A stretch of 58,080 bases of DNA, the filler included, from Catajapyx aquilonaris (taxonomy: Eukaryota), in the NCBI GenBank assembly GCA_000934665.2. It is 3 parts of 3 records of this genome, joined end to end, with 100 filler letters (N's around TTAATTAATTAA, not from the genome) between each part and the next. Parts side by side here need not be neighbours in the genome. Positions count along the whole stretch, not along the records: positions 19,377 to 38,711 come from JYFJ02006495.1; 2 more parts are not named here. One strand, written 5' to 3'. Positions 18,201-38,711 of the stretch are shown here, in pieces (position 1 is the first letter of the stretch; each line of letters starts with the position of its first letter). A model generated the notes under the pieces. The model ran no database searches. It saw only the letters and a list, made by a program, of their open reading frames with translations, and was not told the origin of the DNA. The position numbers and the translations under genes are program-made.

Positions 18201-18817
18201 AGGTTGAACCATCTCAGGTTTTGCTCGGAACCCTAATGGCTCTCCCAATGAGGCAAACCAATCATGACCAGTAGAATAGTTTAGTGACGGTGATTGTTTC
18301 CATTTCCAGGAAGGCAAAAGTGGGAGGATTCCATTCATCTTGGCCATTGAATCACAGAGCTTACAATTTGTAAGACGAATGTTGGCACTTGCAAGAGATC
18401 CCAGTAAGCTGCTGACCACTACAGATTATCAAAAAAACACAGCATTGCATAGAGCTGCCAGCATTTCGGCATTTAGCAGGGAGAAATACATGAGTTTGAT
18501 TGAATTTTTGCTGCGAAATGGGGCACCACCCAATGAAAGAAATGCCATTGGCAGGGTGCCTAAAGCACTGGCACCTTCAGAATTGAAGGAAGTAAGTATT
18601 CAGAAGCAATAAGATAAGGCCTGATTTAACCCAATGGAACTATGAAACTAATAAGTCACATGAAGTGCCATAAGAAGTTCATTAGTTCCTTTCACTTATT
18701 TTAAACTTGATTGGAAACTGCATTCCATGGAAAATTATTGGATCCTGTTTTCAGTGTTGACCTTGACTTTCGTTTCAGGCATATGCCACAGCTTCAAAGC
18801 AGTCCAAAAGGGTGTGA
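6281..18817 (+). CDS. Nuclear (atypical) IkB-family ankyrin-repeat protein, IkB-zeta/IkB-NS/Bcl-3-like, ~789 aa
   Basis: Exons 6281-6598, 6680-6784, 6854-8025, 8109-8220, 8278-8376, 13208-13346, 13921-14024, 18310-18591, 18779-18817, all GT-AG with consistent phases. Spliced protein has NLPESQLTNPDSDGDTQLHIAL, NDQGNTIVHKLC, NNDGWTPLHMV, EGKSGRIPFILA and NTALHRAAS..LLRNGAPPNERN, which match the nuclear IkB ankyrin array, after a long acidic S/P/Q-rich N-terminus. An acceptor at 6279 implies an upstream exon. Confidence 0.9.
8648..8957 (+). mobile_element. Full-length tRNA-derived SINE
   Basis: A box TGGTCTAGCGG, B box GGTTCAAATCC, (TAA)n tail, TSD aaaatgcctgg at 8637-8647 and 8958-8968. Confidence 0.9.
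9142..10108. mobile_element. pogo/Tigger-like MITE hosting a nested MITE
   Basis: TIRs CAGGTACTCCT(A/C)GTTTTA; right end followed by TA. Confidence 0.7.
9352..9793. mobile_element. Tc1/mariner MITE with ~100-bp TIRs, nested
   Basis: cagggtgaagggaaacttgcacccaatcgccaggtagac...gtttttggctcc mirrored at the right end; TA flanks. Confidence 0.9.
10535..10600 (-). mobile_element. 5'-truncated SINE/LINE 3' tail
   Basis: Minus strand ccccctaa...catcacggagta plus A-rich tail, same layout as tails at 8883, 16811 and 54957. Confidence 0.55.
10625..11242. mobile_element. Non-autonomous DNA transposon with repetitive subterminal TIRs (possibly Mutator-like)
   Basis: ggaaatttcgtcccc repeats on the left, gggacgaattgtcggagacgaaatttcc on the right; internal 10860-10950 is homologous to 1260-1352. 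Confidence 0.6.
11570..12292. mobile_element. TIR-bounded non-autonomous element
   Basis: ctattgtttatccgcacct ... aggtgcggataaacgatag (18/19 inverted match); GC-richer interior; TSD unclear. Confidence 0.7.
12660..12810 (-). mobile_element. Degenerate tRNA-derived SINE
   Basis: Minus strand gggtggcatggttgggtagtggtc...gagttcaatccc (A/B boxes); 3' limit approximate. Confidence 0.6.
14144..15001. mobile_element. piggyBac-type MITE
   Basis: TTAA-CCCTAATAAGACTGG ... CCAGTCTTATTAGGG-TTAA. Confidence 0.88.
15379..15848. mobile_element. piggyBac-type MITE with duplicated right TIR
   Basis: TTAA-CCCTTAACTACGTAGGTGG ... CCACCTACGTAGTTAAGGG-TTAA; subterminal gagcctgag repeats. Confidence 0.88.
15900..16165. 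mobile_element. TIR element embedded in (CA)n
   Basis: gcattcctatccttgtgagg ... cctcacaaggatagcaatacgc, flanked on both sides by CA repeats. Confidence 0.65.
16533..16881 (+). mobile_element. Full-length tRNA-derived SINE (second family)
   Basis: A box TGGTGATGCGG, B box GGTTCGATCCC, (TAAA)n tail, TSD ggaaactg at 16525-16532 and 16882-16889. Confidence 0.9.
16953..17346. mobile_element. Tc1/mariner MITE with long imperfect TIRs
   Basis: ta-cagagtggaccaacttcaagtgt ... acacttgaagtttgtccaccctg-ta; inverted similarity extends ~110 bp. Confidence 0.85.
17475..17740 (-). mobile_element. tRNA-derived SINE (third family)
   Basis: Minus strand ggcaggccatatggctgagttggt...ggttcgatcccc; 3' limit approximate. 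Confidence 0.75.
17786..17968 (-). mobile_element. mariner transposase remnant
   Basis: LGWEWLTHPPYNPGFAPMDFH resembles the mariner motif LGWEVLPHPPYSPDLAPSDFH. Confidence 0.8.
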
Positions 18818-19376: not shown

Positions 19377-20099
19377 TGCCATAATTAGTAACAGCTTGGC
19401 ACGTTAGTGAAGGGATTCCAAAAATCTCCTGTGTAGCTTCAAAAAGGAAGAGAAAAACCGCACCGCACCGATAGTAAAATTACATAAAATTCGATGTCGA
19501 TTCCGGTTACACTTCGCTGTATGACGACCGGCCCTCGTGGATGAAACTAATTAGAAGGTATGAACGTGGGCTAGAGAGACACACAGAAACCAGAAGAGAA
19601 AAAAGAGAGGCAAGACTGGTGTCTTCCTTTGTCCGTCTCCGTACCCCCAAAAAGACCTTTCCGGCTTAGGGAATAAATAGCCCTTAATTGCGGACGGTTA
19701 CTTATTATGTAACTTTCCCCAACAATTCCTGCGAGTTTAGATAAGTTGTTCCTGACCATCGAGGCCTGATTGAGGTGTTCAACTAGACGGAAGAGCGTGA
19801 CACAAGCCAGTGACCCTGCAAAAAGACCACATCCGCGTTATGATGAGTATTTAAGAGTGTGAGATTGACCAATCTGCTTGCCATTGGCCCACTATATCTC
19901 GCCCTTCTTGTACCTCAGAGTGGTGAACAGGTTGACTCACCTTTCTACAACACCCCGTGGTCTCCTTCAGACTATTGAAACATTGAATTCGCTGTGATAC
20001 ATGAAATAAAGGATTATTAATTTCCATTTCTATGATGTTATTAGACGCATAAAGTCAAATATGTTGAGCCACTTCATCTAAAACTTTGTTATCACTCTT

Positions 20100-20330
20100 T
20101 AGAACGCCTTTGGAATCCACACGAATCAGAAGAAAAATCACGATCGTAGTTTTCGCACAAAACAACTACACGAAGGCGACCTACACAAACGACATTGTCC
20201 AACAGGCATCAGTGGTAAACTCAACAAGGTATGGGATGGTCCATACTGTATCATTAGCAGGAAAAGTCAGCATCAAACAACATTCCAGAAGGGATGACAG
20301 TGTCTGAAAGGAACCAGACGACAATCCAGT
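20100..20330 (+). mobile_element. LTR retrotransposon (Ty3/gypsy-like) integrase C-terminal remnant
   Basis: Frame from 20217 reads KLNKVWDGPYCII (GPY/F motif), preceded by LHEGDL; boundaries approximate. Confidence 0.6.
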
Positions 20331-21969
20331 CCACGGTGTGAAGAACAAGAGCAGTAGAATGCAAACTTTGTCTAACATCTTTACGCTCCTTCAGTCATGG
20401 TGAAACATCTTTTTAATCCTTCCTGGTCCTCATCATTTACTCTCATCATCCATGAACGTGGTTGAATTCCAGTGTTACAAAATGGTCTTGACAAGGCAGA
20501 GTATCATACAAGTCGCCTCACTAGGGTGGTACCACCAGTGGCTTTGAAAATCTGGTATATGCTAGTGCACCACTGACATTTTGGTGCAACATGCACACCT
20601 TTCACGAATTGCACATATCCATCAATACAATACTTGATGCAATATAGAGCCCGTTAACTCCATATCACCCACAATCAATCGGAGGGTGGAGTAAAACACA
20701 GTCCAACTCATGTGTCATGCCATGTAAGAAACTGACAGGGCAGAATATCAACGACGCGACGCCATTTTGCGTGACTGAACACTCAAAAGCGATGCTGTGC
20801 CCTGCCGAGATGTAGGTCCTACATTATACGGTTTACGAAATGTGGATCATAATCCTTCGTAAAATTCTGGTTGATCTTATTAGCAATATTGACATACGAA
20901 ATTCTACGAAGCCCCTCAGGCTGACCAAACGTAGATTTGACGAAGGCAGCTTGCGTATTGGTGACACTGGGAGGATGAATTCGTCACAGAAAAAGGATCA
21001 GAAAATCACTTGATTCGCTGCTTAGGGCATATATTATAACGTACAACATAAACAACGTGACTTCAGAGACAGAAATTGAAAGCAGTACTTCTCAGCACAT
21101 GGATTTTGGCTGGCCATCCGCAGCATGTCTTGTGTGCTAATCAACTAATTCACGAAGTAGATACTCATGGTGGATTACGCCGAGTTAACAATACCAGTTG
21201 TTATTATTATTATTATTAATGGATCATATTGGAACATGTGACAGGATTTTGCATTACACAGTATTACCATTAGCTCTTGGTATTACACATCACATACAAA
21301 GCCACCTACAAATGCAGGAATTAGACAATCTGATTGCATCATTTGAATATCTCATACACTACTGATATTTTAGTCTGGCCCCTTCCATACATTCTGGGAA
21401 TATGTCAATGGCGCCCAACTATCGACGGTCACCATGAAGACCTGCTACCACTATAACGAAGGAGGTGTGAGCTAGACATGTAGAGACTGCCAGGTGCAAA
21501 GGTCAAAAGGCCGAGGCATTCACCGGTCCGCGACATTAGAAATAAAATGAGACTATTCACGATATGAGAGTAAGGGCACAGCTGAAATATGGTCATGTGA
21601 TATTAGAAAGCCGAAAAGCATGCTTTGTAATAAAGCACACAATTACAAATTGAATGCACAACTTGAGTGGCATATTCGACTCTACACCCAAGATCTCCTG
21701 CAAAAGAAGCAAGCTGCCGGACGTGAAGAATCTGCGGAAACATCTGAGTGGTTAGGCCAGGGCATACATCATCATAATTATGCATCCAATATAGCATAAT
21801 ATCCCAAGTCCACCACCTACGACAATTTTTTTTCCAGAAGGACAATAATGCTAGGACCTTCGTAAGTAGTGCACTGGATTATAAGGCACACTGAATACAC
21901 TTTACAGTACAATGAAAGGACACAAAAAGGTGCATCAGACTGGGGAAATAGCTGCAATAGTATATTCCA

Positions 21970-22391
21970 ACCTTTTTCTAAAAACTGATCGAGATTGACG
22001 ACCTACCTTCATTGCTTGCAATTATCGAACAAAGACTGAAGGACGAGATACTAGACAGGTTACAAGCTACCAAGAGATACATCAAGCGCGAATTTGCCAT
22101 GGAGGACTTTTTTAGTATTGATCTACCACTGTCTCACATTAGACTAATCATAAATTTAAGAAACTCCTCGATCAGCTGACCATGAAAATACATCTAGAGG
22201 TACTATGCAACTGGTGCAACTGGAAAGTCAACCAATCAATGTTCCATATAATCTATGAATGTTTCCTTTTCAATACACCCAGACCTAGACATATCCAAGA
22301 CATACCCCACTATCCTCAGGACAATATGTTACAGTTATTTGTAAAGTTACACAAGAGCGATGTCTGCAAGCTTTATTCTTTTTTTTTCTAG
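21970..22391 (+). mobile_element. Degenerate non-LTR retrotransposon ORF2 C-terminus
   Basis: LCNWCNWKVNQSMFHIIYECFLFNTPR is a Cx2Cx8-9Hx4C zinc knuckle, preceded by frameshifted RLIINLRNSS. Confidence 0.6.
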
Positions 22392-23440
22392 AGGCAACAA
22401 AAATCCTGCAATTTTGTGACTATTGAGAGGAAAACCTGTTAACTCTTTATTTTTCTTGATATAAAATGATTTATAGTACACTTCCCTTCGCCACCATTTG
22501 AAATGGCCTCCCTCCCTCCCCCGCTGACCCACCTGGCCTTTGTTTGAGGTTACGCTTCGAGTCAGTGAGCTTCCCATGTCTATCTGATTACAACTGTATA
22601 GGTCTGGCCCGATCAAGGGGCATGAAAACAAAGAAATAAATTATAAGGCACACTAACAGTAAGTTTCATTCACACACCATACTAATTAGAGGCGCAAGAT
22701 ACACTTTTAATGCTCTCCTGAAAAATGGGAGGTGTGGCATCTTGTCTCTTCATTTGCATTGAACTATTCATACAGGGAATAATTCTACTTACACCTATTG
22801 CAGTCTAGAATATTCACTCGCACTGAAATTTGAACTTCACTTGATTTCTTTTCTTTTTTATTTGCTGCTTCATATGAAGATTATGCAATATCTTGTGATG
22901 AGCAATTAATTCTTGCAGAAATAAATTATCACACCTTATGTGTAATGATTCCATGTACACATCTTATCAATTGGTCAATACTTGTGAAAATGTGCTTTGT
23001 ATCATTATAGTGATATATTTTCTTTCAATTAACAGACAAGTGGCATTGATGTGATAATGTCACACGTTGCATACATTGAAGACCTTAATTCAATATTATT
23101 GACAACAGTTCTTTTAATTTTCATCCATATTTATTCCCACAGGGTTAATATGCTTAAAAATAATTCTCACACTGTACCATCCACGAGCTGCTCTACTTCT
23201 GAGCCCTAGTGTTCCTGACCATCCAAAGAGGGCCTTTAAAGCAAACAACTTGCATCAAACGCAGTACCTTAAAAATTATTCCTGTACCTCACCTGCCACT
23301 TACTTATGCCTGGACGAATAAATTAGCAGCCGCCAATACCTTCTTCGACTGCTTAATGTCATTTTCAACCTCTGGAGGTGTAGTGAAGATATCAGTAGTT
23401 ATACACAAATCAATTATTTTTGCATTGCATTAAAACCTAA

Positions 23441-23531
23441 GTACAGTTGGTTCAAGGTGTATCTTACCAGACCAGACCTAAAAATTATATCTAGTCCTGG
23501 TCTGGTAAGATACTTCTTTAACCGACTATAC
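23441..23531. repeat. ~90-bp imperfect inverted repeat (hairpin)
   Basis: Core gtatcttaccagaccag / ctggtctggtaagatac is perfect; arms ~40 bp. Confidence 0.85.
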
Positions 23532-23589
23532 ATTCCACTGGAGACTACATTTTTGACACATGCTTAATCATACATAGAATTAGCCTTAC

Positions 23590-23977
23590 TCTTCGCAGAC
23601 ACTACCACCAGCTCAATGGTATGGCGTCAACATCCCTGAGATGGCTTTGCAGCACCACATCTTTTAACTTGAATATAGCCACGCCATTGGAGAAATTGTA
23701 TTCCATCAGCTGTCCTGCCTGTAAATAAAGCAGAGGTCTCAGCATCTTGGTCCACAAACAACAGCTGCTTGGGACTCACCTTGAACTCACACTCTCTTCC
23801 AACCCTCTCCATCTGGATCATTTCAAGTATCTTGTTGTCAAACATGACCAGAATGCGGTCCACCATCTTCTGGGTGAGCTTACCCGCCTGTAATAAATAT
23901 TCAGCTGCATTTCAGCACATTGTACACAAATTTTCTGGCGCACCACAGTTGGCATTATCAATGCTAATGGTAAGGAC
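23590..23977 (-). pseudogene. Disrupted, divergent TFIIA gamma (small subunit)-like exon
   Basis: NAAEYLLQAGKLTQKMVDRILVMFDNKILEMIQMERVGRECEFK aligns by eye with the TFIIA-gamma helical region (L.Q...(I/L)T......(V/I)L..FD..I......RV....F(R/K)). In-frame TGA at 23914-23912 and 23629-23627; bounded by ag and gtaagg. Confidence 0.5.
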
Positions 23978-24219
23978 CTAGTAGTCCTAGTGGGTGTATA
24001 ATGCGCTGAACTTATTTCCAACGCTACGCCGACGTTTGCGACGTTGCCAAATCCCTAGAGCGAACCGCAAAGGTTACAGGTCCCTGGGGAGTAACTGGCA
24101 ACGTTGCCTCAACAAGAAAGCTGCGCGAATGTGGGTGCGCACTCGTTTGTTTAATTAGGAAGGTGTCAAATCAATGTCTCTCTGGCTATTTATCTGTTTC
24201 TGCCATGAAATGATTACAG

Positions 24220-24501
24220 ACCAGGTCCAGGCCACCCATTGCAAGTCGACAACCCCTCGTTACCTTCCGCATTTCCGTGAGGGTCTGGGTGAGTGCGACC
24301 CCCACGTGTGTGACCCTGTATATGGAGGTAGGTCTGGGGGTCTTCCTGGCCTATCCTCCCCAGGATGTCCTGCACACGTCCGTACGAAGCAGCCATGGCC
24401 ACACTCTAACGGAAGACATATGGACAAAGCCTGGGACAAAGGGACGGTTCACACGTTTCAGTCACGTAGAAGAAGCGCATGCGCCAGATGGACCGGAATA
24501 G
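24220..24501 (+). CDS. Possible GC-rich terminal exon of an unknown gene
   Basis: ttacag acceptor followed by 93 open codons (TRSRPPIAS...APDGPE*); GC higher than flanks; no recognised homology. Confidence 0.25.
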   Translation, partial: TRSRPPIASRQPLVTFRISVRVWVSATPTCVTLYMEVGLGVFLAYPPQDVLHTSVRSSHGHTLTEDIWTKPGTKGRFTRFSHVEEAHAPDGPE

Positions 24502-27105
24502 TACGGATTGGCTGATGCACCAAAATGCTGACATCTGATTGGCTGACGACTGCGCATCGGAGTGTAAAATGCAACCATGTTTTTTCTGTTAATTATGATA
24601 CAGTGTTAGATCAATTAGATTTGTAATAAAGCGGATTATATAGTAATTAATTATGTTTGTGCTAAATTGGTGCATGTTCCCCCCATATGGATCGGTCCGG
24701 CAGCCATCTTTAATTGAGTCAAATTTATGGGCGCGGCATTTGAAGCAATTTCGTGATATTCCTACAATCGGACACTTGAATAACGTTGCAGATATGTGGG
24801 CATCAGTTCAATAATTACGGTGATTACTGAATTTCAATGATTGCATTCTAAGGTGTCCCAAGTTGAAGGAACTTATGTCTGAAGCGGACGTAAGCGGTAA
24901 GGCGGACTGTTGGAACTGGTTGAATTATAGATTCAACCGACGAGAATCATTGTCTGGATCGATCAATCTTCCTGCTTTGTTCCTCTTAGATAATGAGAGC
25001 CTAAAATAATTAAAGGCCAAATATACAAATCAGCACCGGGTATATAATATAATGAATGAAAGCCAACATAAAATGAAACATTCTTACTACATCTATTGGC
25101 GCGTCCTATTGTCAGAACCACCACATGTTTAAGCAATCATAATTTCAGATCTGGACTTGTGATGTGAGACTTGCCCTGACAGAGAAGCCCTTGTTCGTAT
25201 GGTAGGCATATAGCGTCTAGAGCTATAGCATTACACAACTATGTGCGCAAGTAGACTTGCCTCGTTTGTTTGCGTGAATTGAAAAGATATTACTGTATAA
25301 CCAACACAGTTTTTTTTTAACTAGTAGCAATCAGATGCTGATAAGCACGTTTAATATTATGGCAAATCACTGTTCATCCACACCTCTCCCTGCAGTGGAA
25401 TATGTTAAAACACCACAATCACCATAATTATGGTGACAATCTTCAGGAAAACAACCAGATAGATTCCTGTCTACAACAACCAAACAAACCACCCAACAAC
25501 TTGAGGCTTATTAATAACATTGGAGACTATTGAATGTGCTAATTCAATGTGTAGCGTCTAGTTATCAGATCTCCCAACTAGATCCTAGGATCGACCTAAG
25601 TCTGACTGGAACTGTGCAGGGCCACAAAGATAGCTCGACACAAAAGTCCTGCGCCTGCTACTGTACCAGGAGGAAGACGTTGTCATATTGATAAAAAAAC
25701 AAAAAACAGATATCATCTGAAACACTTGTTTACATAAGAGTTGACAACAATTGCGGAAGTAAAATGTTTCAATTGGTATGTATATAGTAAATGCAATATT
25801 TTAAAAGACTGAAAATGCATCGCTAAATATTTGCATATCATACAATATGTAATAATGGTATAAAAATAAGCTTACGTTTCACATAATGTATCCCCTGCCA
25901 GTATGTAGAAGAGTATGCGACAATTACGTATGTGGCTATGAAGGGTTCACACACTCGTTTTGTAATACACACACTGACATAGTAATATTAATATATTAAA
26001 ATCAGTTGCTGTGAGTGCCATGGACTAAACCCTCCAGATGATGGAAGCACAGAGGGGGGACACACCAGATCAGCATCATTACAGTGCTCAGCCATCATCA
26101 TGAGTACAGAAAGTACGGCCATTTTTGTCTGGCAGAAGAGGAAAAGGTGGCACGCAGGGGATGGAACCTTATTTAATCAGTACAGTACATATTCACCGTA
26201 GGTTCCGACCCCAATGTCCTGGACTTTCCTTGACCTGTCCCTTGCCGTCTGGCTCATCCTCAGGTGGAGATGACTGCTCTGAGGCACCCAGATTCGCCCT
26301 GATTTCCCAGAACGTAACAGACAAACTTCAACGGAACGGCAGCCTACTTGTAAAGTACTAAAAATATCGACACCATGACACGTCAGAAATACCAATAACG
26401 CATTAAATATCGATATTTAGCTATATTCTTCTGGAGACTGACGAGGCAAGAGAAGACCATCTATATTCATTAAAATCCTTCGTTGCTTGAGCAAGGCCTA
26501 CACAGAAACTAGTAAACAGTGACCTTTCGTTGACACTGTTGAGGTCATTTCCATGGAAACTTGAGAAAATTGGGAGGTTCCAAAAGTGCATTCAAGGATG
26601 TCCTTTGACCATCCCACCGTAAACCGCAGGCCTAGAAAAAAAGTGAGCGAATCGATGGTTTTTCGATTATTTATTTATTATTTATAAACCTGGAGACAAC
26701 CACAAGTTACAGCCATGTAATAACAGGCCTTGTCAGAAGCAATGCTCACTTTTGGGATTGGAAGCAATGTTTATATGGTCATACATATGTATCTCACACG
26801 CTCATGCATATGATCCAGACTCACTCACACATACATGCAACACACACAACCAATCATAACATGCGCACAAAATTCATACATTAAGACACATCCACATACA
26901 ATGCAAGGTCACGAACAATCACACGTTCAAACATGAAACGTATGGATAACACATTATTATATTCGGCACGAACCCATGCAAACATCGCGAAGAAAAAATC
27001 AGTAGGTTTGCAGTCAACATGTCCTCGAATAACAATACAAGAAATTTTGATTGCTGCAAAAAGGCACAGGCTGGGAGAGGACCTCTAGTTCGTGGCAACG
27101 GTCAA

Positions 27106-28231
27106 TCATATCCGGTAACGAGGGTTCTTCATCGCCTCCTGCTGACCGCAATCGAATATGTCAGCGTGGCAAAAGTAGGAGATCTCGGCACGGCTTGGGA
27201 TGTCCCATATGTCCTTCAGCTGGATACTGAAATCGAAGAGGGAAAGCTGCTCTGATGACCCATCGAGAGACTAACACTGAATGACTACGAAATTAATTTT
27301 TTAAAAAGTCGAACAAAAAAAACTAACCCGATGGAACGTATGGCAACTTCCTGATCAGCATCTTCGGTCCAAACCTCGATCCTGTTGCCCCTAGCCCTGC
27401 AACCCGCGACGGCCCCAGTCACCTGGACGCCGTACCACTGGAAACCCGAACCGACGATGCACAACAGCTGCGACATAAAATATTTCCCCATGAATTTCCA
27501 ATCGAATTCTCCAAATAAGCTGACTTACAGTCTGCATCCACTTGTCCCTGATCATGTCCCGAGGAGCGTTCTTCCCCAGCGGGATCCGAAAGTGTCCTCC
27601 GTACTTGTTCTCATCCGACTCCCACATTGGCTTCACTCCGTGCCTGAAGCAAGCGTAGTCGTACCCGCAGGCGTTCAGTGGACCCGGGTTGTCTATATCC
27701 TCCCACACCCTATGGGTGCACCCATTGTTAACAATATTGTTAACCGGCTTTGTTTCATCTAGGTTCTTACCGTATGAAGGCAGGAAGAGACTGCAGGAGG
27801 ATCAAGGGAGCTAGGTTGTCTCCCCACCTGCTCCTCTTCTGGTGGGTACGGATGACCCACATGTTCCACCAGGCACCCAGGAGAGGCATGGCCCCCTGGA
27901 GCTCATCTGGAGGCAGATACGGGTTGACAGTAGGCAGCGGATCTCCGTACATGTAGTACATCGCTGGTTCGGTAGGTGTCTGAACATCCGGGTTGTATTC
28001 CCTCGGATAGAAGCAGGGTGCCAGGGCGGACAACTCCACTTTCGAACTAGTTGGTGCGTCACCTCCTCCGACGTCCATGTGTTCCTCTGGTGGTACCACA
28101 GTCTCCTTCTCTTCGATGGTCATGTCCCCACTGCCGTCTCCAAGCTCCATCCCAGTATGAGGGACGATGTCAGGCTCCGTGGGGTCAAGGGTCGAGGCAG
28201 CACCTTCCCCGTGGTCATTGTCGCCCTCCAT
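27106..28231 (-). CDS. eIF4E: Divergent eIF4E-family cap-binding protein with acidic N-terminal extension and PAM2-like motif, 300 aa
   Basis: Exons 28231-27771, 27709-27529, 27467-27328, 27226-27106, GT-AG, 903 nt open. Motifs PLLGAWWNMW..W, DYACFRHGVKPMWE..NKYGG, WMQTLLCIVG, GAVAGCRARGNRIEVWT, ISYFCHAD. An acceptor 7 nt before the ATG implies an upstream exon. Confidence 0.92.
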
Positions 28232-29179
28232 TCGATTCCTGAGAGTTTGAAAGTCCCGACCGTTACTAGGTTTTCAACAATGTGTAGACGACCAGTTGAT
28301 TACATGACAACATGGATCAAGCAAGTTCGAAACGTACATGTGACCAAGCATCGCATTGTCACACTTTTCCGCAAGTCATGCGAATATCAAACACTACCAC
28401 TCAGCATATAGAACACACCCCACGTCTTAACAAGATGACCTTTCGGACGAAATAACTGTGACAGAGCCACGGCACGAACATAGTTATTGAGAACATAATA
28501 CGCAGGAATAACTGACCTTTAGCAGCGGCTGCCCTATTGCACAATGGCCGACCTGCTCCTCCTCTCTCTGTTCAGGCAGAAATGGAATTAACAACGATCG
28601 AGTGTCAGCAACAATGTGTGTCAACAGCGCCATGTTTACCATGGATGTCGAGTAGTGGTTCCCCAGGTTACCGTCAAATATGAAATGTGCACAAGAGAAG
28701 AGGCCAATAGTAGCCTATAGGAACCAAAATGGGGGACATCAGAGTTTCAAATTGTCATGACCTGGACCCACCCAAGCAGTACCACTCATTGTCTACTCTT
28801 CTGAAACAGCGGACAGTGTATATTAACCTGTAGGAATAAATAAATGGCACTTAACTCCCAACTCTTTGTGTGTGAAGATCACATTGTTGAGGAAAGGCAC
28901 AACAGGTCGATATAAGTGACTTCGAGTTACATAAGCAGATCAACGGGACTCATGGAGACGAAGAATAACTCTTAATTTTTGTCCTACTACCTATCATGTA
29001 CCAATACCAATACGTAATACGACGAAGTACCATTGAAACTTAAGGATGGGTCCTTCTCGTAAAACTACATTCACGGTAGAAAAATTCCACAAAACAATGG
29101 GAAAATAACCAGAGCTGGAGACAAAATTAATCATGATTATAAGTACGTAATTCACAGCATCCACACACTAACCCGCACG

Positions 29180-29731
29180 AGCCTCAAGTGAAGTTTCCCC
29201 ATTACCTCTGAGATACCAGAACAATAAAGTCACCAACAGGAAGAGTGATACTCAACTAACCATCTTCACACAATCCGCACACCTCGAATATTTCCTTGCA
29301 AAATGCAGAAAACGACACCAATTATGTTGCTGCCATTAAAACTGTAATTAACTGATCAGTAAAGTACATATTTTCACAACCGTGATTCTTGGATGATCTG
29401 CTCAGGCTCGTATAGTCGAAAAAGTGACACATGAGGCTTAGAACCACACAAAAAGGACGGACGACGCGACGACCATTATTCACAAGGCTGCATAAGAAGC
29501 CATCCATTTTGTGACCTTCTTGAACGAGTGAGAAGGTCTATAAGTTACACAGAGAAGTAACCCCCAACGGGCATCAAGTGAAGTTTCCTCACTACTTGTG
29601 AGGTACAGTACCGGAACAATCAAGGCATCAACCGGAAGAGTGATGGGGACTGATATTCAACCAATCATCTTCACACAATCGGCTCACCTAAATTATTTCA
29701 GTGCAAAGTACAGAAGACGACACCAATGATG
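29180..29731. repeat. Degenerate direct repeat, two ~150-bp copies
   Basis: tcaagtgaagtttcc...ggaagagtgat...catcttcacacaatc...acgacaccaat at ~29180-29330 and ~29570-29731. Confidence 0.8.
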
Positions 29732-31421
29732 CAACCAAATGCACCAATGAATCACCAATCGAAATATAGCACTTTACAATATTCTCAATCTTTACAGTGA
29801 TGGTGTTAGTGATTACAAACATCGGCAAGAATAATTTATTACCTGGTCACTCCAAACGCATTACTTGAACCTGTCGATGGTCCTAAATATATCGGAACAT
29901 GGAAAAGGAATTATTATAATAATAACTATTTAGTGTTTTACCAAGATACAAATATTACTCCTGGCAAAAAAGGTGACCCCGAGAGAAGTTCATGGACACA
30001 CGCGAATGAATATAATATGGTGAGGGCAACTCATACGTAACAGAATATCGACGTGTTCTTATAAGAGGAGACAATAATTCGAAATAGAACCACACTCAAG
30101 CAATGGCTCCAGTTCAGGTACCAGATCAAAATCAACCATTTTTGTCTGTTCATAAACGAGTAAAAAATGGAATGTAAAGTATGCCGAAAATCCCCGGTCT
30201 CCTGGACAGAATCATCATGGACAGAATCATCCGATTGCATGCCATTAATAACTAACATTAACCAGTAATATTACTGTTTAGGCTCATCAATAAAGCAAAT
30301 GGGTGTGACAGCTCCCTGAGAGTGAATGTAGGATATTATTTCATCAATATCATGTGATAGCAGGACTTTGGCTAGCTTTACCATGTTAGCAAATACACCG
30401 TCTTGGCGATCAGCAGCAAAATATTCAGAAATTGATAATAATCTGCTCCTGTCCATAACGACAAGTTCAGTAAGCATCCAGACGGGTCCTTGATCTAGAA
30501 TAGGTGCAGGTTGCCTGCTTTGGCATGAAGAGCAAGGCGGCAGAAGTGATGCAGATGTAGCCAGTTCATACTATCACTGGTGTTCGGCATATTTCCGTTG
30601 ACTAGGAGTTGGTAAGCGAAACGATGACGTCAATGGCAAGTTAGGCTGGGCGGCTATAGTAACCTATGTATTACGACGTGAAATCATATGAGCATTGTCC
30701 ACTTTCACAAAATGAACAACACATTACTATAACACGAGAAAGTGAATCCCATAATTGATAAATTGAGCATTTATTTAAAAAGTAAAGAGATGTCACCAGT
30801 ACTGAAGAACAATCACCGGTTGACAATATCAGTTCGACCTCCCTACCCATATCAAGGAAGTCATGCTGCGACGCGTAACATTAATGTATTTTACACATCC
30901 GACAAGAACTCACCGCTTTATCGTGTACAACTGAACATTTGTCATTACTGCTCAAGGTAAGAGGTTAACTACATATCAGTATACAATGCTTTCATTGTAT
31001 ATGACGGGCGCACGCCACCAGGATATATTTAACACACATACAACAGGATCTCGCACAGGAGTAAGATAGAGTGGAATAGGGAGATGCTGAAAATTGGGCA
31101 AAAAGCTTCTTCATTTTACCTGCATAAATCTTCCTTCAGTGACAACAATTGCTGAAACAGTTCTTAAACTATATCAGGAAACACTATCCAGTACATCATG
31201 CAACGGGAAATTCCAACTCCACCAGAATCTGGCATTTGCACTAACATGTCAGTAAATTAAGCATTAAATAGTGGGATTCACCATTAGCATTGTCGCGGCG
31301 CAAGTATGAAAATGCCACTCTACTTGCAGATCTTCACAGGAAGTAACCACACTTAAATCACAGAGTTATACAATGACAGCACTTTAATTGTGAAACTTTT
31401 AAATAGTGAGGCGATAATAAC

Positions 31422-31720
31422 GTGGAAGCCGTCACGTACATTCACAGCAATATGCTTAAGCACAGGGATTTGAAACCAGCGAACATATTGCTGTGCAATG
31501 CTGATAGCCATGTGAAAGTCGCCGATTTCGGCATAGCAAAAGTAGCAGGTGTTCCAACGCACAGCATGTCATATGTTCAACACACAAGATACCGAGGTAC
31601 CCTTATCTACTCGAGCCCTGAACAGCACAGAGGAAGTGTACATAGTCGAAAGACTGACATTTTTTCTCTCATGGTAATTTTTTCGAAGTATGACACCTTT
31701 CCCACGTTTTCCACCTTTCA
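31422..31720 (+). pseudogene. eIF2-alpha kinase (PERK-like) C-lobe fragment
   Basis: EAVTYIHS..KHRDLKPANI..VKVADFG..HT..GTLIYSSPEQ..G...KTDIFSL covers subdomains VIa-IX; in-frame TGA at 31407; no N-lobe seen; frame decays after subdomain IX. Confidence 0.75.
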
Positions 31721-34700
31721 TCACAGCTTGCTACGGTACGCATCCAAAATCAGTTCTACATATTAATAAAACCCATCAGCTGACAATATTCATCCAGAAA
31801 CATCAACTCTTGTGTCAGAAGTCATTATTATTATCCTCTTCTTTCTCTCCGCAGCATTTGAAAACCAACATCGTAACAAGTAAGGGAGATCGGGGTCGGT
31901 TGTAACACTTTTTAGTTTGGATTTTTAAATTCAGTTGCATATGCATTTAGGCAAAGGTTTTTGACATGGTGGAAATAAGGCAACATTCCCTGAGATGCCC
32001 AAGGGCGAGAGGGAAAATAAACAGATTAATAAAGTAAATACACAGACACGGTGTAAGGGAAGACAGAATAATTGACATGTCTCCAGAAGGTTGCCCAAAC
32101 GTTGTTCACTCTTTCATTTACACAGATATCGTGTACCATCATGAGGGATTGGGATGGCGACATCGGACTTTTCTTTGGACAGTTAAATTTGTGGACCACG
32201 ACTATCCCGCCAAGAAAATATTTGCAACGTATGTGACGTACTCGTCGCTTTGCTAATTAAAATGAGAGGGGACATTAGTTGAAATGCACTGACAGTAATA
32301 ATACAGTATAAGGATGTAACCTGCAACCAGCTAACTCGAAGTGCATGTGGGCATAAATGAATATTTAGATAAACTGATGAAATATGGAAAAATGCAGCCC
32401 ATTACATAATGCTCATTCAGTAATAAGAACAATTTTCAAGTGGCATGTAATTTTCCGAAATTTCGTTATGTTGATTCACATTCTGCCCGAGTTTATTCCC
32501 ATAAATTATAATGACAACATAACATACGTATCAAAACGATAATGTTTGTTGTTGCTGGATAAAAAAAAGTAATGCACGTCTGCAGCCTTTCTGGCAAATT
32601 AACACAACAAAAGAAGTCTAACAATTTTTTTTTGCATCATAGCCATCGGGGGAAGTAGGTGCGACGAAAGGTCCATAAATTGGCAGAAACATCAACCTGC
32701 TCGAAAATAACCGTTTGGTTGTCAAAAAGTATTCTCAATCATTTGTCACAGGAAGAGCATGGAACATCAACCACAGAAAACAGGAGGGCGATGCAACGAA
32801 TAAGATGGGTGGGTGTTGTTCAGTTTGGTGCTCAAAGACTTAAATAATATGAACAAGTCCAAGTTGGTAATTTTTTTAAATAGTAAAATTGTCAGCAGAA
32901 CAAGTAGTGTCAGTTTGCCATCCAAGTAGGGAATATGTTGTTCTGTCAAAAGAGAAATAACTTATCCTGCTACGCATAACATGAAGTGAGTCATTATTTA
33001 CACATTCTTCACAGATACCCTGTCGTATTGACTTCTACCCGGACTTCCATTAACGAGAGTATCTCAGTAGCAGAATTTGTGATATAAGGAGCATAAATAT
33101 TTACATATTTCCGTCCAAGTCCTTCTTCATTATTATTTTAACCTGTACTGTAAACTACAAAAGATATAAATATGTCTACATTCATATGACAACAAAGGGT
33201 GGTGAACAAGGTTCTTCTCGAAATGGAAGCCGGCTGGAACCATGAGTAACGGTAACAACATGCCATGGCATAGAATCGCCCAAGACAACAGCAATGGCTG
33301 GAATGGAACACTACATACTACTGCAAGTTCTATAGACCGTTATGAATCATAGTTAACTTGTACGTGCTTTCAGATTAATATGTAACACAAATTGGCATGC
33401 TTCCCAACTATACTGGTCCGAGACTTATTCTCTCTACAATACACTTTGTTCGGAAGCATTGTGTCTAACAATTAAGACGAGAGTGAGCTGGTGCTAGATG
33501 TGACCATAAGTTAGAAGATAAAATATACCATTTAGGACTCACAATCATGTGGACGTGAACATCAATCAGACGCCAAATCAAAATAGCTACCACAAAAGGC
33601 GGGGCACAATCTCAATTGTATCACAACACTTCATAGCGTGTAATCCGAATCGTCCTTGTCGAAAAGCATGAAGGCACAAAAAGTTATCAAAATTGGACTC
33701 TAATAATGGTAGTAATCAGCTGCATATCCGTGATAATAAATACATACTTGCATCGTGATATGGGCATCAGAAGCTCCTCTTAAAAGAAAAAGCATGAAAC
33801 GCAAACAAAACCCAAAGGAGGCCATTGTCAGCGCTGGTATTCTCAATGGAGCGAAACCATCGCCGGTTATCGTTCCTGAGAATGTCAAAATCAACCAAAA
33901 AGTCTACCACTAGCGAATTCTGGTGTCAATAATTCTACTTCCTTGGGCCCGAGAGCATTTTTGAGAAGGTTGGACTTATGTCGTTTCTTATTTATATCTT
34001 GCTTATGACAAGCAGTAGGCATTGAATCAAAATGTAGAGGTTGCTATTCGAGTAAAATAGATCTTCCTGAGTTGTTTTCCTATGTATAGTTACCAACAGT
34101 ATTACATGTGAGTTTTTGTATATTTTTATTTCTCTCTAATAAAAACCTCACATACCATCCATCTATCCCACAGAGCTAGTCAAACTAGACCACTCTTGAC
34201 ATTGGTGCAGTAGTGATTTGGACCTTTATAAAAGGATCATTCTCATCAACCAGGATCCACCTCCTTGGGTATCATCACTAGTGACTGAGCTCTGCACTAT
34301 GGCTTTGCCCTGCTGCCTCCATAAACTCGCCTAAAATTTCACCTGGTGAGCATTCTGATAGGATCCTTTTGCACAATCATGAACCAGAAAGGGTAAAAAT
34401 TGCAAAGATGCAAAAGAAGAGCGTGACCTGGCAGGCCTGGCGCAGACCCTTGCAGCAAGACTTCATCCAGACAAGAAGCCTTTTCTCACCATATGATTTA
34501 GCTAAGTTATGCAACAATCTAGGCAATAAAGACAAAATATAACCCAGAATCTGAAATAAATCAAAATCCACCATCGCGACACATGCAACAGTAGAACAGG
34601 GAAGACGCTAAAAATTGGGCAGAAGCTTCTTCATGACCTCCATCAATCTCACTTCAGTGAAAACACCTGCTGAAACAGCTTTGATAAACAGCTTTTGATG

Positions 34701-37647
34701 TATGGACCTGCAGGACTCACTACATGCAACGGGACGCTCCAACTTCTCTAGAATGAGGCACCTGCACATGGTACATAAACATCAATAAATAAAATATTTT
34801 TTTAAAAAAATTAACTCATCCATGAGATTTTGGCGCAGGAAACATGAAAACACTACTCAACGTGCAGGCCTTCCCCAAGGAAGGACTTCTGCCCCATACC
34901 TACGTTACGTGGACGGCACATGGGGAAGAGGAAAAATGTCGTAGGTCGTACATAGACTGACATCACGGTAATTAACTTCATAGTATGAAGTACTAAAGAT
35001 TGACACATGTCATGGTTCACAAAATTTGCCATAATTAAAGTAACCATACCTTTACATCACAAAGGTAAAGACTCGGGTAAAGATGTTTACTGATACTAGA
35101 AGTGCATTGTTGTAAGCTCATCTTGAAGTATGCCTTATTCTAGGTCAGTCATAATGAGCATAGCTCGGGCTGCTGAGAGTAATAGCTGCTGCAATATGGC
35201 ATCACATCTAGGCTGGGCTATCTTATACAATTTCAGTAAGATGTTATGCCATTATAATTTCATATGCTTGACATTTACATTACAGAACATGGAAATATGC
35301 TGGTTATTTATTTGTTCGAACACACTCGGGACAAGGTAGGCTACCAAACCTGCAACATTGAAAAACAACAATGATTTGTGACTCTCTGAACCATGTTTTG
35401 TTTTAGTCACAGTGATGCCAGTAACACGGCGAGATCAACTATATCAAAATTACCCTACGGGATGCCCTTTTTACTGCAAAAGCGGCCGCACTCGCTGAAG
35501 GATTTCCTCGAAAGTTTGAATGCCAACATGAGAAGTGCGAAGAAGAGAGAGCAGAATGTGACTTGGCAGGGCTGGGGCAGGTACAAAATTACAAAATATG
35601 GCAACAATTTGTACACAATACTATTACTATTCACCGCGTGTTGACAGCAGCACAGTGAAGAATTCAGTTTGGACGTTGAGCCTACGCATTGCTGTTACCA
35701 TCATGGAAGCAGTTGCGGACCCTAATGGAAAATATTGTGCGACACGATTTCCTACAGGGGCACTTCTGGGAAGAGAGCAGAGATTCGAAAGATTCAGATG
35801 ATGAAATGCACCTGCCTGCTTACATATAATTTTATTAGCAAAAAATCAAGTACCGAAAAATATTTTCTATGTCATCTATACAAAAAGAGTGCATGAAAAC
35901 AGCGTGCAACATAAATAAACAGTTACCACTAACTAGCAAGACGAGTGGAATATATGAACCAAATTACATTTTACATGTTTAAGCTCCTTTATCACAAGAA
36001 GCAAGTCTGTGCCATGTAACACGCAGCTATTACTTTTCAAAATAAATAAATAAATAAATTACCATAGTTTGGTCGCCCATGACCTGACTGTACCAAATGT
36101 AAAGTACGCGAAGGCTTTCCTTCTTGGACGAAAGTGTAAGGTTAATTATAAAATAAGAGAGCATATAATCTCTTCATGTGTATGTCTCCCTTTCGTATGT
36201 ATCCTGTGAAAAGAAGTAGACCTTTCCATGTGCCTCGTCCCATACACACCATGAGGAATATGTCGACCAGAATCTCTGGAAAATTCATGTGTTTGACAGG
36301 CTGTATAATCTCATGCTGTATAATCTAATGCGATGTGCATCGTTATGAAGTGCTATTAGTACCACCATCCATTTACTTAAAAAGACACCTTTTGTATTTG
36401 ATAATAATTTATAGCCCAATGTAGGAAAGTACTTTTTTCATTCAGAAATGTTACACGTATGTGGCGGGACCAAAGCAATAATGGTCCCAGATTGACTCGG
36501 GTGTCCCATTGCACCCCACTACAAAGGCGACATTTCCAAGTAGAAAATCCACATGTGCGTGTACACAAAACAGCCGACATGCAGCAACTCATGAAACAAG
36601 AAATACACGAATGGTACGAAGCACACAGTACGAAGCTGTACGATGGAAATATTGGCACAATACTGCAAATTGTGATACACGCATTTCCAAAGTTGTTCTC
36701 TAGAGATTATGGCAAATATTTATTGTTAAGTTTATTACAAATGCAGCACTCTATGGTGAAATAGGCCTACACTATGAGATATGTCAATTATATTGTCTCA
36801 CGACTTTTTAGGTATAGACACGCAGCAAGTAGTACACTGCTATGAAAATAACTGGACCAGGTCTTTACACATTCTAACAAAACAGTGGAGCAAAAATTAT
36901 GTGAGCATGGCCTAGCTCATCTTTGTCATGCCCTCCTAATCACTGTGGAGTGATCCTAGGGTCAAATAAACTCGTCATATCGTTCCATGGAATGTACCCT
37001 GTACACCAGAGAGACAACTTAGCTTATCGATGAAGCGAATGAATGTGACAGATGACGGTGTATCCAGGCGAGTCTGAGATCAATTTCAGGATTTTCGCCA
37101 GCTTTACCATGTTAGAAAATACACTGTTCTTGTGGATCAGCATTGGTGGCATCATGAGCTGTAATATCAATAAAGGGCAGAAAGTCTATAGGGACATTCA
37201 AATCAGAAGACACCATGCAATGATCTGGTACAACGCGTTCATTTTCCGTGTCAAGATTACAGAGTATACGTACGTATACTTCTAGCAAATATCTTGCTCT
37301 GATCTGGAGACAATCATCCATAACTGCAAAACACGGCATCTGAGCACAAGGAATTCAGCATATCCAGGAACAAGTGCCGTACCCACATGACTCGTTACTT
37401 ACTACCACAGTTGGCAACGAGCTAATTACAAAATTCCTGCTAAAAGCTGCAGGGTGAGCTGAACAGAGCACTGGCGGCAGCATAAGACCCAGAGGAAAAA
37501 AACCCGGTGAAAGACAGGCCAGCGACAAACACTGTTCATAACTCTTGACGACCTGAATTGGACGAATTATAGACTTTACCATTATAATTGTCCACATGAT
37601 ACTTTTTTGGGTCATTTCCCCCTAAAACCCACATACAATTACCGGTA

Positions 37648-37760
37648 CTTATATTTAAATACACCTACGATGATCGGTAAATTGGTCACGGAAGTGTCAT
37701 GGCATGCCAGGTCCTCGGACCTTAATCCTTTGGATTATTTTCTATGGGGTCATCTAATGG
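37648..37760 (+). mobile_element. Tc1-like transposase remnant
   Basis: WHARSSDLNPLDYFLWGHL resembles WPARSPDLNPLDYFLWG. Confidence 0.8.
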
Positions 37761-38711
37761 ACTCGACCCACTGACATACAGGACCTTTGAAAGTGACATG
37801 CTGCAACGTGTCACGGGGTCGATTCTCTTTCGACCATCTGCTTGGTTATTGAAGTACTGTGATGAACTGACATTCTCAAGGCGAACAAAATCGTCCTACT
37901 GATTTGCCTGACGCGCAACAAAAATTCTACAGGACATCAGTGTAATGAAGAATGAGATGCTGATGCTTAATGCGCATCAGACACACACATACAAGGAGCT
38001 TCTTCATTTATATTTGAAGCTGTAGATTACAAATAAGACGCGCAACATGAAGAGGTATCACAAACAGTGCCAATAAAATTATGAAGTATAGCTTGCTGGA
38101 CGGATGTTGGGAGTAGAAGAACCAAATTGCCATATCTCTCAACCCATCAGTACATTTTAACTGTACATGACACTTCGATCCATCCAACATAACACTCGTC
38201 CAAAGTCACCCCTCCTAGCTCCTGCCCATTGGTGAAGTAGTGATTTTTTTTACATTTATAAAAGAATAGTTTTCAACAACCAGAAGCTACCTCATTGGGC
38301 ATCATCACTAGTGACTGAACTGTGTGTAAGAACTGTGTCTTTGCCCTCAGCTACCCACAGCGACTAGGAGTACAGCATATCACCTGGTGAAAATTCTGGC
38401 TGAGCACCTTTAGCACCATTGTGAAACAGAAGTTTGACCTCGCACAGGAGTAAGACAAAGTAGACCAGGGAGATGCGCTGAAAATTTGGCAAAAGCTTGA
38501 CTTCCCCAAATCTCACTTGAATGACAAGCTCTTGACCAATTTGCAGGACACAGTACATCTCCACAACATGTAGGGGCAGCTCCAACTTCTCCAGAATATG
38601 CCACCTGCACATGGTATACGAGGGAGGGTCAAAAAGTTATCTACCTAGGTATGAAGGACATGTGTTACAACTCTCACAATGTCATTTTTTCTCGATGTGA
38701 TCTCCCTTCAT

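Follow-up and report, generated by a model that had tools for sequence, protein, structure and literature searches.

An eIF4E-like gene of Catajapyx aquilonaris with a largely retained cap-binding side, an isoleucine at the Trp-73 position and a possible role outside eIF4F

Can a protein of the eIF4E family keep the pocket that holds the m7G cap and at the same time give up the face on which eIF4G and the 4E-BPs dock, and, if so, what could such a protein be doing? This question is raised by an eIF4E-like gene of Catajapyx aquilonaris (GCA_000934665.2), which lies within the JYFJ02006495.1 part (19,377-38,711) of the 58,080-nucleotide (nt) stretch of DNA analysed here (the window), and for which a first-pass annotation had proposed exactly this combination. 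The gene is read on the minus strand from 28231 to 27106 and is intact, with four exons that yield a coding sequence (CDS) of 903 nt (300 codons and a TGA stop) and three introns of 61, 61 and 101 nt, each running from GT to AG. The span from which the first-pass annotation had started (27328-27890) comprises exons 2 and 3 together with the part of exon 1 that codes for the core, but neither exon 4 nor a 112-residue N-terminal extension. The answer that we favour, with a probability of roughly 55%, is that the product is an intact and maintained member of the family that would bind caps outside eIF4F, without docking of the canonical eIF4G/4E-BP helix, and that it may be linked to PABP.

Membership of the predicted protein in the eIF4E family was confirmed through its two central exons. 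Both reach the Pfam IF4E (PF01652) gathering cut-off of 28.7 bits, namely exon 2 (27529-27709, minus strand like all features of this gene; residues 154-214, searched as a 60-residue translation) with 36.5 bits and an E-value of 5e-9, and exon 3 (27328-27467; residues 215-261, searched as 46 residues) with 28.9 bits and an E-value of 1.1e-6. Exon 1 and exon 4, each searched alone, gave no Pfam match. In phmmer searches of the PDB, all 34 distinct chains retrieved with exon 2 at E<=1 are eIF4E-family proteins, as are 28 of the 29 retrieved with exon 3, and the printed alignments contain 19 identities to human eIF4E in 46 aligned positions (exon 2) and 17 in 43 (exon 3). For exon 2, vertebrate eIF4E1 ranks best (1.4e-7), followed by fly eIF4E-1, 4EHP, and nematode and plant eIF4E, a ranking that places class I eIF4E ahead of 4EHP (28.8 bits vs 35.1 bits for the best chains). 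Class I is defined by Trp at positions 43 and 56, whereas class II (4EHP) carries Tyr, Phe or Leu at position 43 and Tyr or Phe at position 56 (PMC3382400); in the present protein W121/W122 and W136 fit the two positions by pattern, in a manual alignment only. An identity as 4EHP was rejected in view of the Trp at both candidate positions (manual alignment), the weaker exon 2 score and the failure of exon 3 to retrieve any 4EHP chain at E<=1. A viral origin was rejected as well, since spliceosomal introns are present and mimivirus vIF4E scores far lower than vertebrate eIF4E1.

On the cap-binding side, the human numbering was taken from the phmmer alignments to the 217-residue chain 1ipb_A, in which residues 15-60 of exon 2 correspond to positions 88-133 and residues 1-43 of exon 3 to positions 134-176. 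These alignments give identity at D90 (D171), W102 and E103 (W183 and E184), R157 (R238) and W166 (W247), a conservative change to Arg at K159 (R240) and K162 (R243), a conserved W130 (W211), and replacement of R112 by His (H193) and of W113 by Phe (F194). The spacing from W183 to W247 is 64 residues, the same as from Trp-102 to Trp-166 in the human protein.

The first third of the core (residues 113-154), which by position would comprise beta1, beta2 and helix 1, is encoded by the end of exon 1 (27771-27895). Exon 1 as a whole (27771-28231) is an open frame from the ATG at 28231 to the GT donor at 27770, and holds the start codon and the N-terminal extension in addition to this part of the core. 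W121, W122, W125, W136 and the hexapeptide S-L-P-A-F-I were recognised here by pattern and spacing. As a 51-residue query, the exon 1 core found no match in Pfam or the PDB at E<=10, the whole of exon 1 retrieved only a chance match to ATP synthase subunit f (E 0.94), and the window revealed no other exon that carries the N-terminal Trp pattern. W136 lies exactly 17 residues ahead of I153, as Trp-56 lies ahead of Trp-73, and although no tool aligns the stretch, we take W136 with fair confidence to be the equivalent of the stacking Trp-56; the loop that bears it exceeds the spacing between Trp-43 and Trp-56 by one residue. W43 and W46 were placed by manual alignment only, through a W-x2-W-hydrophobic-hydrophobic pattern (W122..W125-V-I) that needs one or two single-residue insertions, and the change of H37 to Met likewise comes from manual alignment only, with M-P-L in place of H-P-L. 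By the same manual, not tool-derived, comparison about one-fifth of the positions in the stretch 37-87 agree with human eIF4E, half the level found elsewhere. Of the residues that the first-pass annotation had listed, D90, W102, E103, R157, W166, K162R, E132Q, E140S and R112H/W113F are thus borne out by the PDB alignments and W56 fits by spacing, while W43, W46 and H37M have the manual alignment behind them.

From these residues it is most likely that the protein still binds the m7G cap, perhaps more weakly because R112 is His. It should be said against this that the R112H change and the extra residue in the loop of the W56 equivalent could weaken binding or abolish it, and one may thus picture an eIF4E fold without useful m7G cap binding that serves as an adaptor for PABP or for another protein. 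The W113F change, the variable length of the W56-equivalent loop among the copies of the gene (see below) and the fact that the N-terminal third, W56 equivalent included, is unrecognisable to profile searches would all suit such an adaptor. The five identical cap-side residues and the two Lys-to-Arg changes would not, and neither would the finding that the cap-binding part is the most constrained part of the protein; moreover, 4EHP also has no Arg at the 112 position and yet binds the cap (PMC3382400). We therefore consider a cap-dead adaptor to be very unlikely, and continue with a protein that probably does bind caps.

The docking face presents a different picture. Ile153 (codon ATA, 27773-27775) takes the place of Trp-73, an assignment for which plant proteins provide the anchor: in HMMER alignments of the first 34 exon 2 residues with the plant eIF4E chains 2wmc (pea) and 2idv (wheat), W156, the second residue of exon 2, stands opposite the Tyr of the plant Y-N-N-I-H motif, and one inserted residue follows in the loop after W156. 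We take this plant Tyr to be the counterpart of human Tyr76. An ungapped count back over the intron junction (intron 1, 27710-27770, 61 nt, GT..AG, phase 2 within codon 154) then gives V155 as 75, R154 as 74, I153 as 73 and F152 as 72. Independently of the plant anchor, I153 and W183 are 30 residues apart, compared to 29 between human Trp-73 and Trp-102, which agrees with a single loop insertion and thus supports Ile at the Trp-73 position. In the accessible part of the survey by Joshi (2005; PMC1260017), the family consensus is given as (S/T)VxxFW, carrying Trp-73 as the anchor for eIF4G and 4E-BP; this hallmark of class I-III eIF4E is not present here, where S-L-P-A-F-I has Ile153 in place of the Trp. 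The substitution of W73 by Ile, and with it the change of TVEDFW to SLPAFI that the first-pass annotation had noted, is hence real, given the plant-alignment anchor and the spacing to both W136 and W183.

The exchange does not stand alone. Among the other six eIF4G/4E-BP contacts named in the same part of that survey, H37 (Met, manual alignment), V69 (Leu) and L131 (Met) are changed and E132 is Gln, while P38 and L135 are kept. For helix 2 on the dorsal face, the 1ipb_A alignment places M212 at L131, Q213 at E132, the conserved L216 at L135 and S221 at E140. Citing mutagenesis, the survey further states, in the text accessible to us, that non-aromatic substitution of Trp-73 disrupts binding of both eIF4G and 4E-BP (Joshi, 2005; PMC1260017). 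From the residue changes together with this mutagenesis, we infer that canonical docking of eIF4G and 4E-BP is impaired.

Several points weigh against this reading of the docking face. The contact patch is still hydrophobic (L149, I153, M212, L216), W156 follows one helical turn past I153, and our picture of the dorsal-face geometry is drawn from sequence. With a hydrophobic patch and a Trp nearby, some helix docking may persist, and a co-evolved or non-canonical partner is conceivable. The claim of the first-pass annotation that the docking face is lost therefore went too far, although the replacement of its dorsal residues stands.

If the rebuilt face does hold a partner, this could be a paralogous eIF4G, a protein of the 4E-T, GIGYF or Mextli type, or a lineage-specific protein, bound in an eIF4F-like or repressor complex and perhaps with an own partner for each copy of the gene. 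The hydrophobic contact residues speak for such a partner, as does the presence of W156 in at least one sister copy. There is precedent in that Leishmania eIF4E4 binds eIF4G3 via residues unlike the human ones, according to the accessible part of PMC6379680, and in that fly eIF4E-3, with its Trp-to-Phe change, binds eIF4G weakly in two-hybrid assays (PMC3382400); the interaction table of a 2026 review, of which a part was available, contains positive as well as negative scores for eIF4E-3, depending on the partner (PMC13733232). On the other hand, no candidate partner is known, and the protein itself contains no YxxxxL-phi motif. Weighing these points, and those from the sister copies below, we regard a dedicated partner as rather unlikely, but as an alternative to be taken seriously next to the favoured reading of a cap binder outside eIF4F.

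Is the gene a single oddity, or does it belong to a larger group? A tblastn search of the window revealed no second copy, with only self-matches below E 1. DNA from the same sample gives another answer: Logan contigs from three DNA runs (X1-X3) of one sample were placed on 26900-28500 at 80% likeness, the runs listed comprising four DNA runs of one study, no RNA run, and one run of unspecified kind that contributed no contigs. Contigs identical to the window tile the whole gene, and several further copies with 80-91% identity have introns of their own at the three intron positions of the gene (intron 2 at 27468-27528, 61 nt, GT..AG, phase 0, and intron 3 at 27227-27327, 101 nt, GT..AG, phase 2, in addition to intron 1). 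Up to four non-reference contigs cover one place, and at 27613 four of them agree against the window. In run X1, the contig depths add up to 148 over 27548-27601, within exon 2, vs 23-30 in the flanking bins. As alleles would split the depth rather than add to it, the divergent contigs point to further loci, with pooled individuals as a less likely alternative.

One of these copies, at about 90% identity, is represented by a contig that covers 27535-27956 and differs from the window by 37 substitutions and 7 gap letters. Its intron has gained 2 and lost 2 nt, and its exon 1 has a net gain of 3 nt between codons 130 and 131 (behind 27841), which adds another residue to the W56-equivalent loop, so that the length of this loop differs among copies. 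Three loose ends of sister contigs were read by hand. At 27531, a GT donor comes right after a codon for Ser (Thr214 in the window) and leads into a different intron; at 27340, GTGAGT follows I-F-H-I-G, where the window has I-R-S-I-G and then GTTAGT; and at 27684, an AG acceptor precedes x-L-W-E-E-L-C-D-A-G, compared to R-V-W-E-D-I-D-N-P-G in the window, which is the sister sequence that retains W156. Since the sister introns sit at the same sites, the family grew by duplication at the DNA level and not by retroposition. Retrocopies were also rejected as the cause of the apparent joints in the contigs, as the skipped spans of 114, 150 and 116 nt do not match the introns and the loose ends carry other introns. 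We read the joints as alignment breaks where the copies have probably become too different, that is in helix 1 and its loop, in helix 2 and where exon 4 begins. The alignment of three sister contigs ends in the helix 1/loop region and that of one in the helix 2 region, and the variation between copies is concentrated on the docking side, both of which would be in line with a co-evolving partner. At the same time, it has to be conceded with regard to the favoured reading that position 73 of the sister copies is not readable, as codon 153 shows no difference in the incomplete listing for the 90% copy and the other contigs do not cover it.

How these copies differ from each other also bears on whether the gene is maintained. 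The ratio of non-synonymous to synonymous change per site (pN/pS) was estimated from the coding differences listed from the contigs, with 32 further differences outside this listing and with 22% of the sites of the CDS counted as synonymous. Among those listed, 25 codons are changed, 14 synonymously and 11 non-synonymously (pN/pS about 0.22, binomial p 2e-4). Exons 2 and 3 contribute 9 synonymous and 3 non-synonymous codons (pN/pS 0.09, p 1e-4), compared to 3 and 7 in the exon 1 core (pN/pS 0.71, p 0.42), where five of the seven non-synonymous codons come from one contig and fall within residues 120-129. The cap-binding part hence appears to be under purifying selection and the docking side to be variable among copies, although the regional contrast is suggestive only. 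Two reservations apply, namely that the contrast between exons 2-3 and the exon 1 core has a Fisher p of 0.08, and that the whole estimate stems from 25 codons on short, fragmentary and non-independent contigs of one sample. Near-neutral change on the docking side, moreover, would fit relaxed constraint just as well as adaptation to a partner.

This leaves the most sober explanation, that the gene is a silent or dying duplicate, recently amplified, unexpressed or heading towards a pseudogene and without present function. Such a duplicate could explain why exon 1 found no match among 1.84 billion representative proteins and why two word-based searches brought up no relatives (for exon 1, 1358 candidates with none at E<=0.001; for exon 2, a single candidate that was not retained); a search of the ESM Atlas with exon 1 also gave no usable match. 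It would further agree with an exon 1 core that is indistinguishable from neutral among copies, and the accessible part of Joshi (2005; PMC1260017) reports that genome-only predictions were avoided in that survey for fear of pseudogenes. However, an open frame of 300 codons in four exons with canonical splice sites is difficult to reconcile with decay, as is the retention of six of the eight Trp positions of the family at about 30-40% overall identity. When drift by substitutions only was simulated down to <=40% identity, the frame stayed open in just 2 of 2000 runs. The only coding indel seen in the 90% copy is the net gain of 3 nt, whereas its intron carries out-of-frame indels, as does a variant contig over 27019-27178 in its 3' untranslated region (UTR). 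This contig, the sole one at that place in runs X2 and X3, has 4 substitutions and 12 gap letters; its listed differences all fall into the 3'UTR (27055-27103), with none listed in the 73 coding bases 27106-27178, which, like the rarity of open frames under simulated drift, is a sign of constraint on the frame. The first-pass annotation had regarded a dN/dS near 1 as the mark of a decaying copy; in the cap-binding part the ratio is not near 1, with 9 synonymous vs 3 non-synonymous codons, and a pN/pS of 0.09 in exons 2-3 argues against a decaying copy. A dying duplicate is therefore, in our opinion, highly improbable.

A further candidate element lies in the N-terminal extension. Residues 67-76 (28004-28033) read L-S-A-L-A-P-C-F-Y-P, which is the sole match to L[NS]xxAxxFxP among the 116,156 six-frame residues of the window. 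Compared to the published PAM2 consensus LNxxAxEFxP (PMC7356810), the Leu, Ala, Phe and Pro are in place; two positions deviate, with Ser instead of Asn and Cys instead of Glu, which counts against its being a functional motif. If it is one, this pattern match could provide a direct contact between the protein and the MLLE domain of poly(A)-binding protein.

Putting these elements together, the favoured cap binder outside eIF4F may be described as follows. The gene would belong to a multi-copy, lineage-specific eIF4E-like family that derives from a class-I-type eIF4E by DNA-level duplication. The C-terminal two thirds of the core, with most of the cap contacts and about 40% identity to the human protein, would be strongly constrained among copies, while the N-terminal third and helix 2, which would form the dorsal and lateral docking surfaces, appear to have been rebuilt (W73I, H37M, V69L, L131M, E132Q, E140S), with amino-acid change in the docking part about as fast among copies as silent change. 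The YxxxxL-phi helix of eIF4G and 4E-BP would then find no useful docking affinity, the protein would sit on caps without being part of eIF4F or subject to 4E-BP/TOR control, and the PAM2-like peptide could act as a direct bridge to the MLLE domain. Whether this would amount to a repressor, a storage factor or an alternative route of initiation, all of which the first-pass annotation had considered, is speculation, since sequence cannot tell repression or storage from an eIF4G-independent route.

One could go a step further and imagine an animal family with a constant cap pocket in which the docking face diversifies from copy to copy and PAM2-PABP bridging closes or locks the mRNA loop without eIF4G and outside 4E-BP/TOR, as a metazoan arrangement convergent with the trypanosomatid eIF4E4-PABP1 pair. 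We hold this extended picture to be distinctly unlikely. Conflict, such as that with viruses or within the germline, might in such a case be the force behind the diversification of the docking face.

Exon 4 (27106-27226; residues 261-300 and the TGA) closes the 903-nt frame and would provide the C-terminal strands, including a stretch S-Y-F-C-H-A-D; its resemblance to the eIF4E C-terminus comes from manual comparison only. At the other end, an acceptor-like C-T-C-T-C-A-G was noted by eye at 28232-28245 (minus strand), 7 nt upstream of the start codon, and suggests an intron in the 5'UTR with an untranslated first exon farther upstream. The gene is arranged head-to-head, at a distance of about 3.2 kb from its 5' end, with a kinase exon on the other strand (31410-31763, plus strand; Pkinase E 3.4e-20) that has the motifs H-R-D-L-K-P-A-N, D-F-G and G-T-L-I-Y-S-S-P-E-Q and whose five best matches of solved structure are the eIF2-alpha kinases PERK, GCN2 and HRI; a word-based protein search with this exon returned generic kinases only. 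This hints at a translation-control neighbourhood. None of the 99 plus-strand open reading frames of at least 35 residues between 28.3 and 41 kb contains another kinase exon. Elsewhere in the window, an ankyrin-repeat exon is found at 18280-18609 (plus strand; Ank E 2e-6), and the longest open reading frame of the window (6665-8044, plus strand; 460 residues) matches no Pfam family at E<=0.001.

Our literature search on eIF4E in non-insect arthropods found nothing on eIF4E, and the nearest known systems are those of Drosophila. In the accessible part of the survey by Joshi (2005; PMC1260017), all class I-III eIF4E proteins of animals, plants and fungi keep Trp-73 with the exception of fly eIF4E-1d, that is eIF4E-3, which has Phe for Trp103 (the Trp-73 position) and His for Leu160 (PMC3382400). 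Fly eIF4E-6 and 4E-HP bind the cap and, as far as the accessible part of a review goes, bind neither eIF4G nor 4E-BP, with eIF4E-6 being proposed as a repressor (PMC13733232); a cap binder outside eIF4F is thus a known kind of protein in arthropods. Like the gene described here, eIF4E-3, eIF4E-6 and 4E-HP are lineage-specific arthropod paralogues with altered eIF4G/4E-BP docking, the fly ones being partly testis-expressed. The Catajapyx protein differs by its non-aromatic Ile, its unrecognisable N-terminal core third and its PAM2-like peptide, a distinction made from published descriptions of the fly proteins. In addition, a retrocopy origin is assumed for fly eIF4E-6 and eIF4E-7 (PMC3382400), whereas the Catajapyx copies keep introns.

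An aliphatic residue at position 73 does have parallels outside animals, as the accessible part of the same survey lists Leu at this position for eIF4E from Encephalitozoon cuniculi and from the nucleomorph of Guillardia theta (Joshi, 2005; PMC1260017). These class-I-like proteins share the non-aromatic residue, but each is the only or the principal eIF4E in a genome that is extremely reduced, whereas the gene studied here is an extra, amplified animal paralogue. Vertebrate eIF4E1b is a close relative of eIF4E1a that keeps Trp-73, and we know of no PAM2 motif in it. As a germline paralogue that is described as non-canonical and is reported to protect dormant maternal mRNAs (PMC10883267, accessible part), it provides a precedent for a storage role. 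The giant-virus vIF4E (PDB 9e5b) is another divergent eIF4E, which according to the accessible part of the report has a changed aromatic sandwich and works in an IF4F complex of its own (10.1101/2025.09.30.678621), with no mention being made there of position 73; it matches exon 2 with an E-value of only 0.0025 (21.6 bits) vs 1.4e-7 for vertebrate eIF4E1, and the Catajapyx gene has spliceosomal introns.

With respect to the putative PABP link, the comparison leads to the trypanosomatids. Leishmania eIF4E4 carries a PAM2 motif in its N-terminal extension that binds the C-terminal domain of PABP1 directly and so links cap and poly(A), according to the accessible parts of PMC6379680 and PMC11754739. 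The eIF4E4 and eIF4E3 proteins of Leishmania and Trypanosoma resemble the present protein in that they are N-terminally extended and have a PAM2 or PAM2-like motif, but they are intronless protist proteins and, as stated in the accessible part of PMC6379680, still bind eIF4G on the dorsal face. As the Catajapyx extension has no detectable sequence relative, the likeness would be convergent.

If the gene should prove to be silent or its product cap-dead, it would merely be another lineage-specific eIF4E duplicate. If the favoured reading is true, it would represent a natural experiment on a cap-binding protein that works without eIF4F, and it could show whether animals, too, have acquired the direct bridging between eIF4E and PABP that has so far been described in trypanosomatids. 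Measured against the known systems, it is hence not the sort of protein that would be new, but the combination of an Ile in place of Trp-73, an N-terminal third that searches do not recognise, a PAM2-like peptide, and amplification in which the docking side varies.

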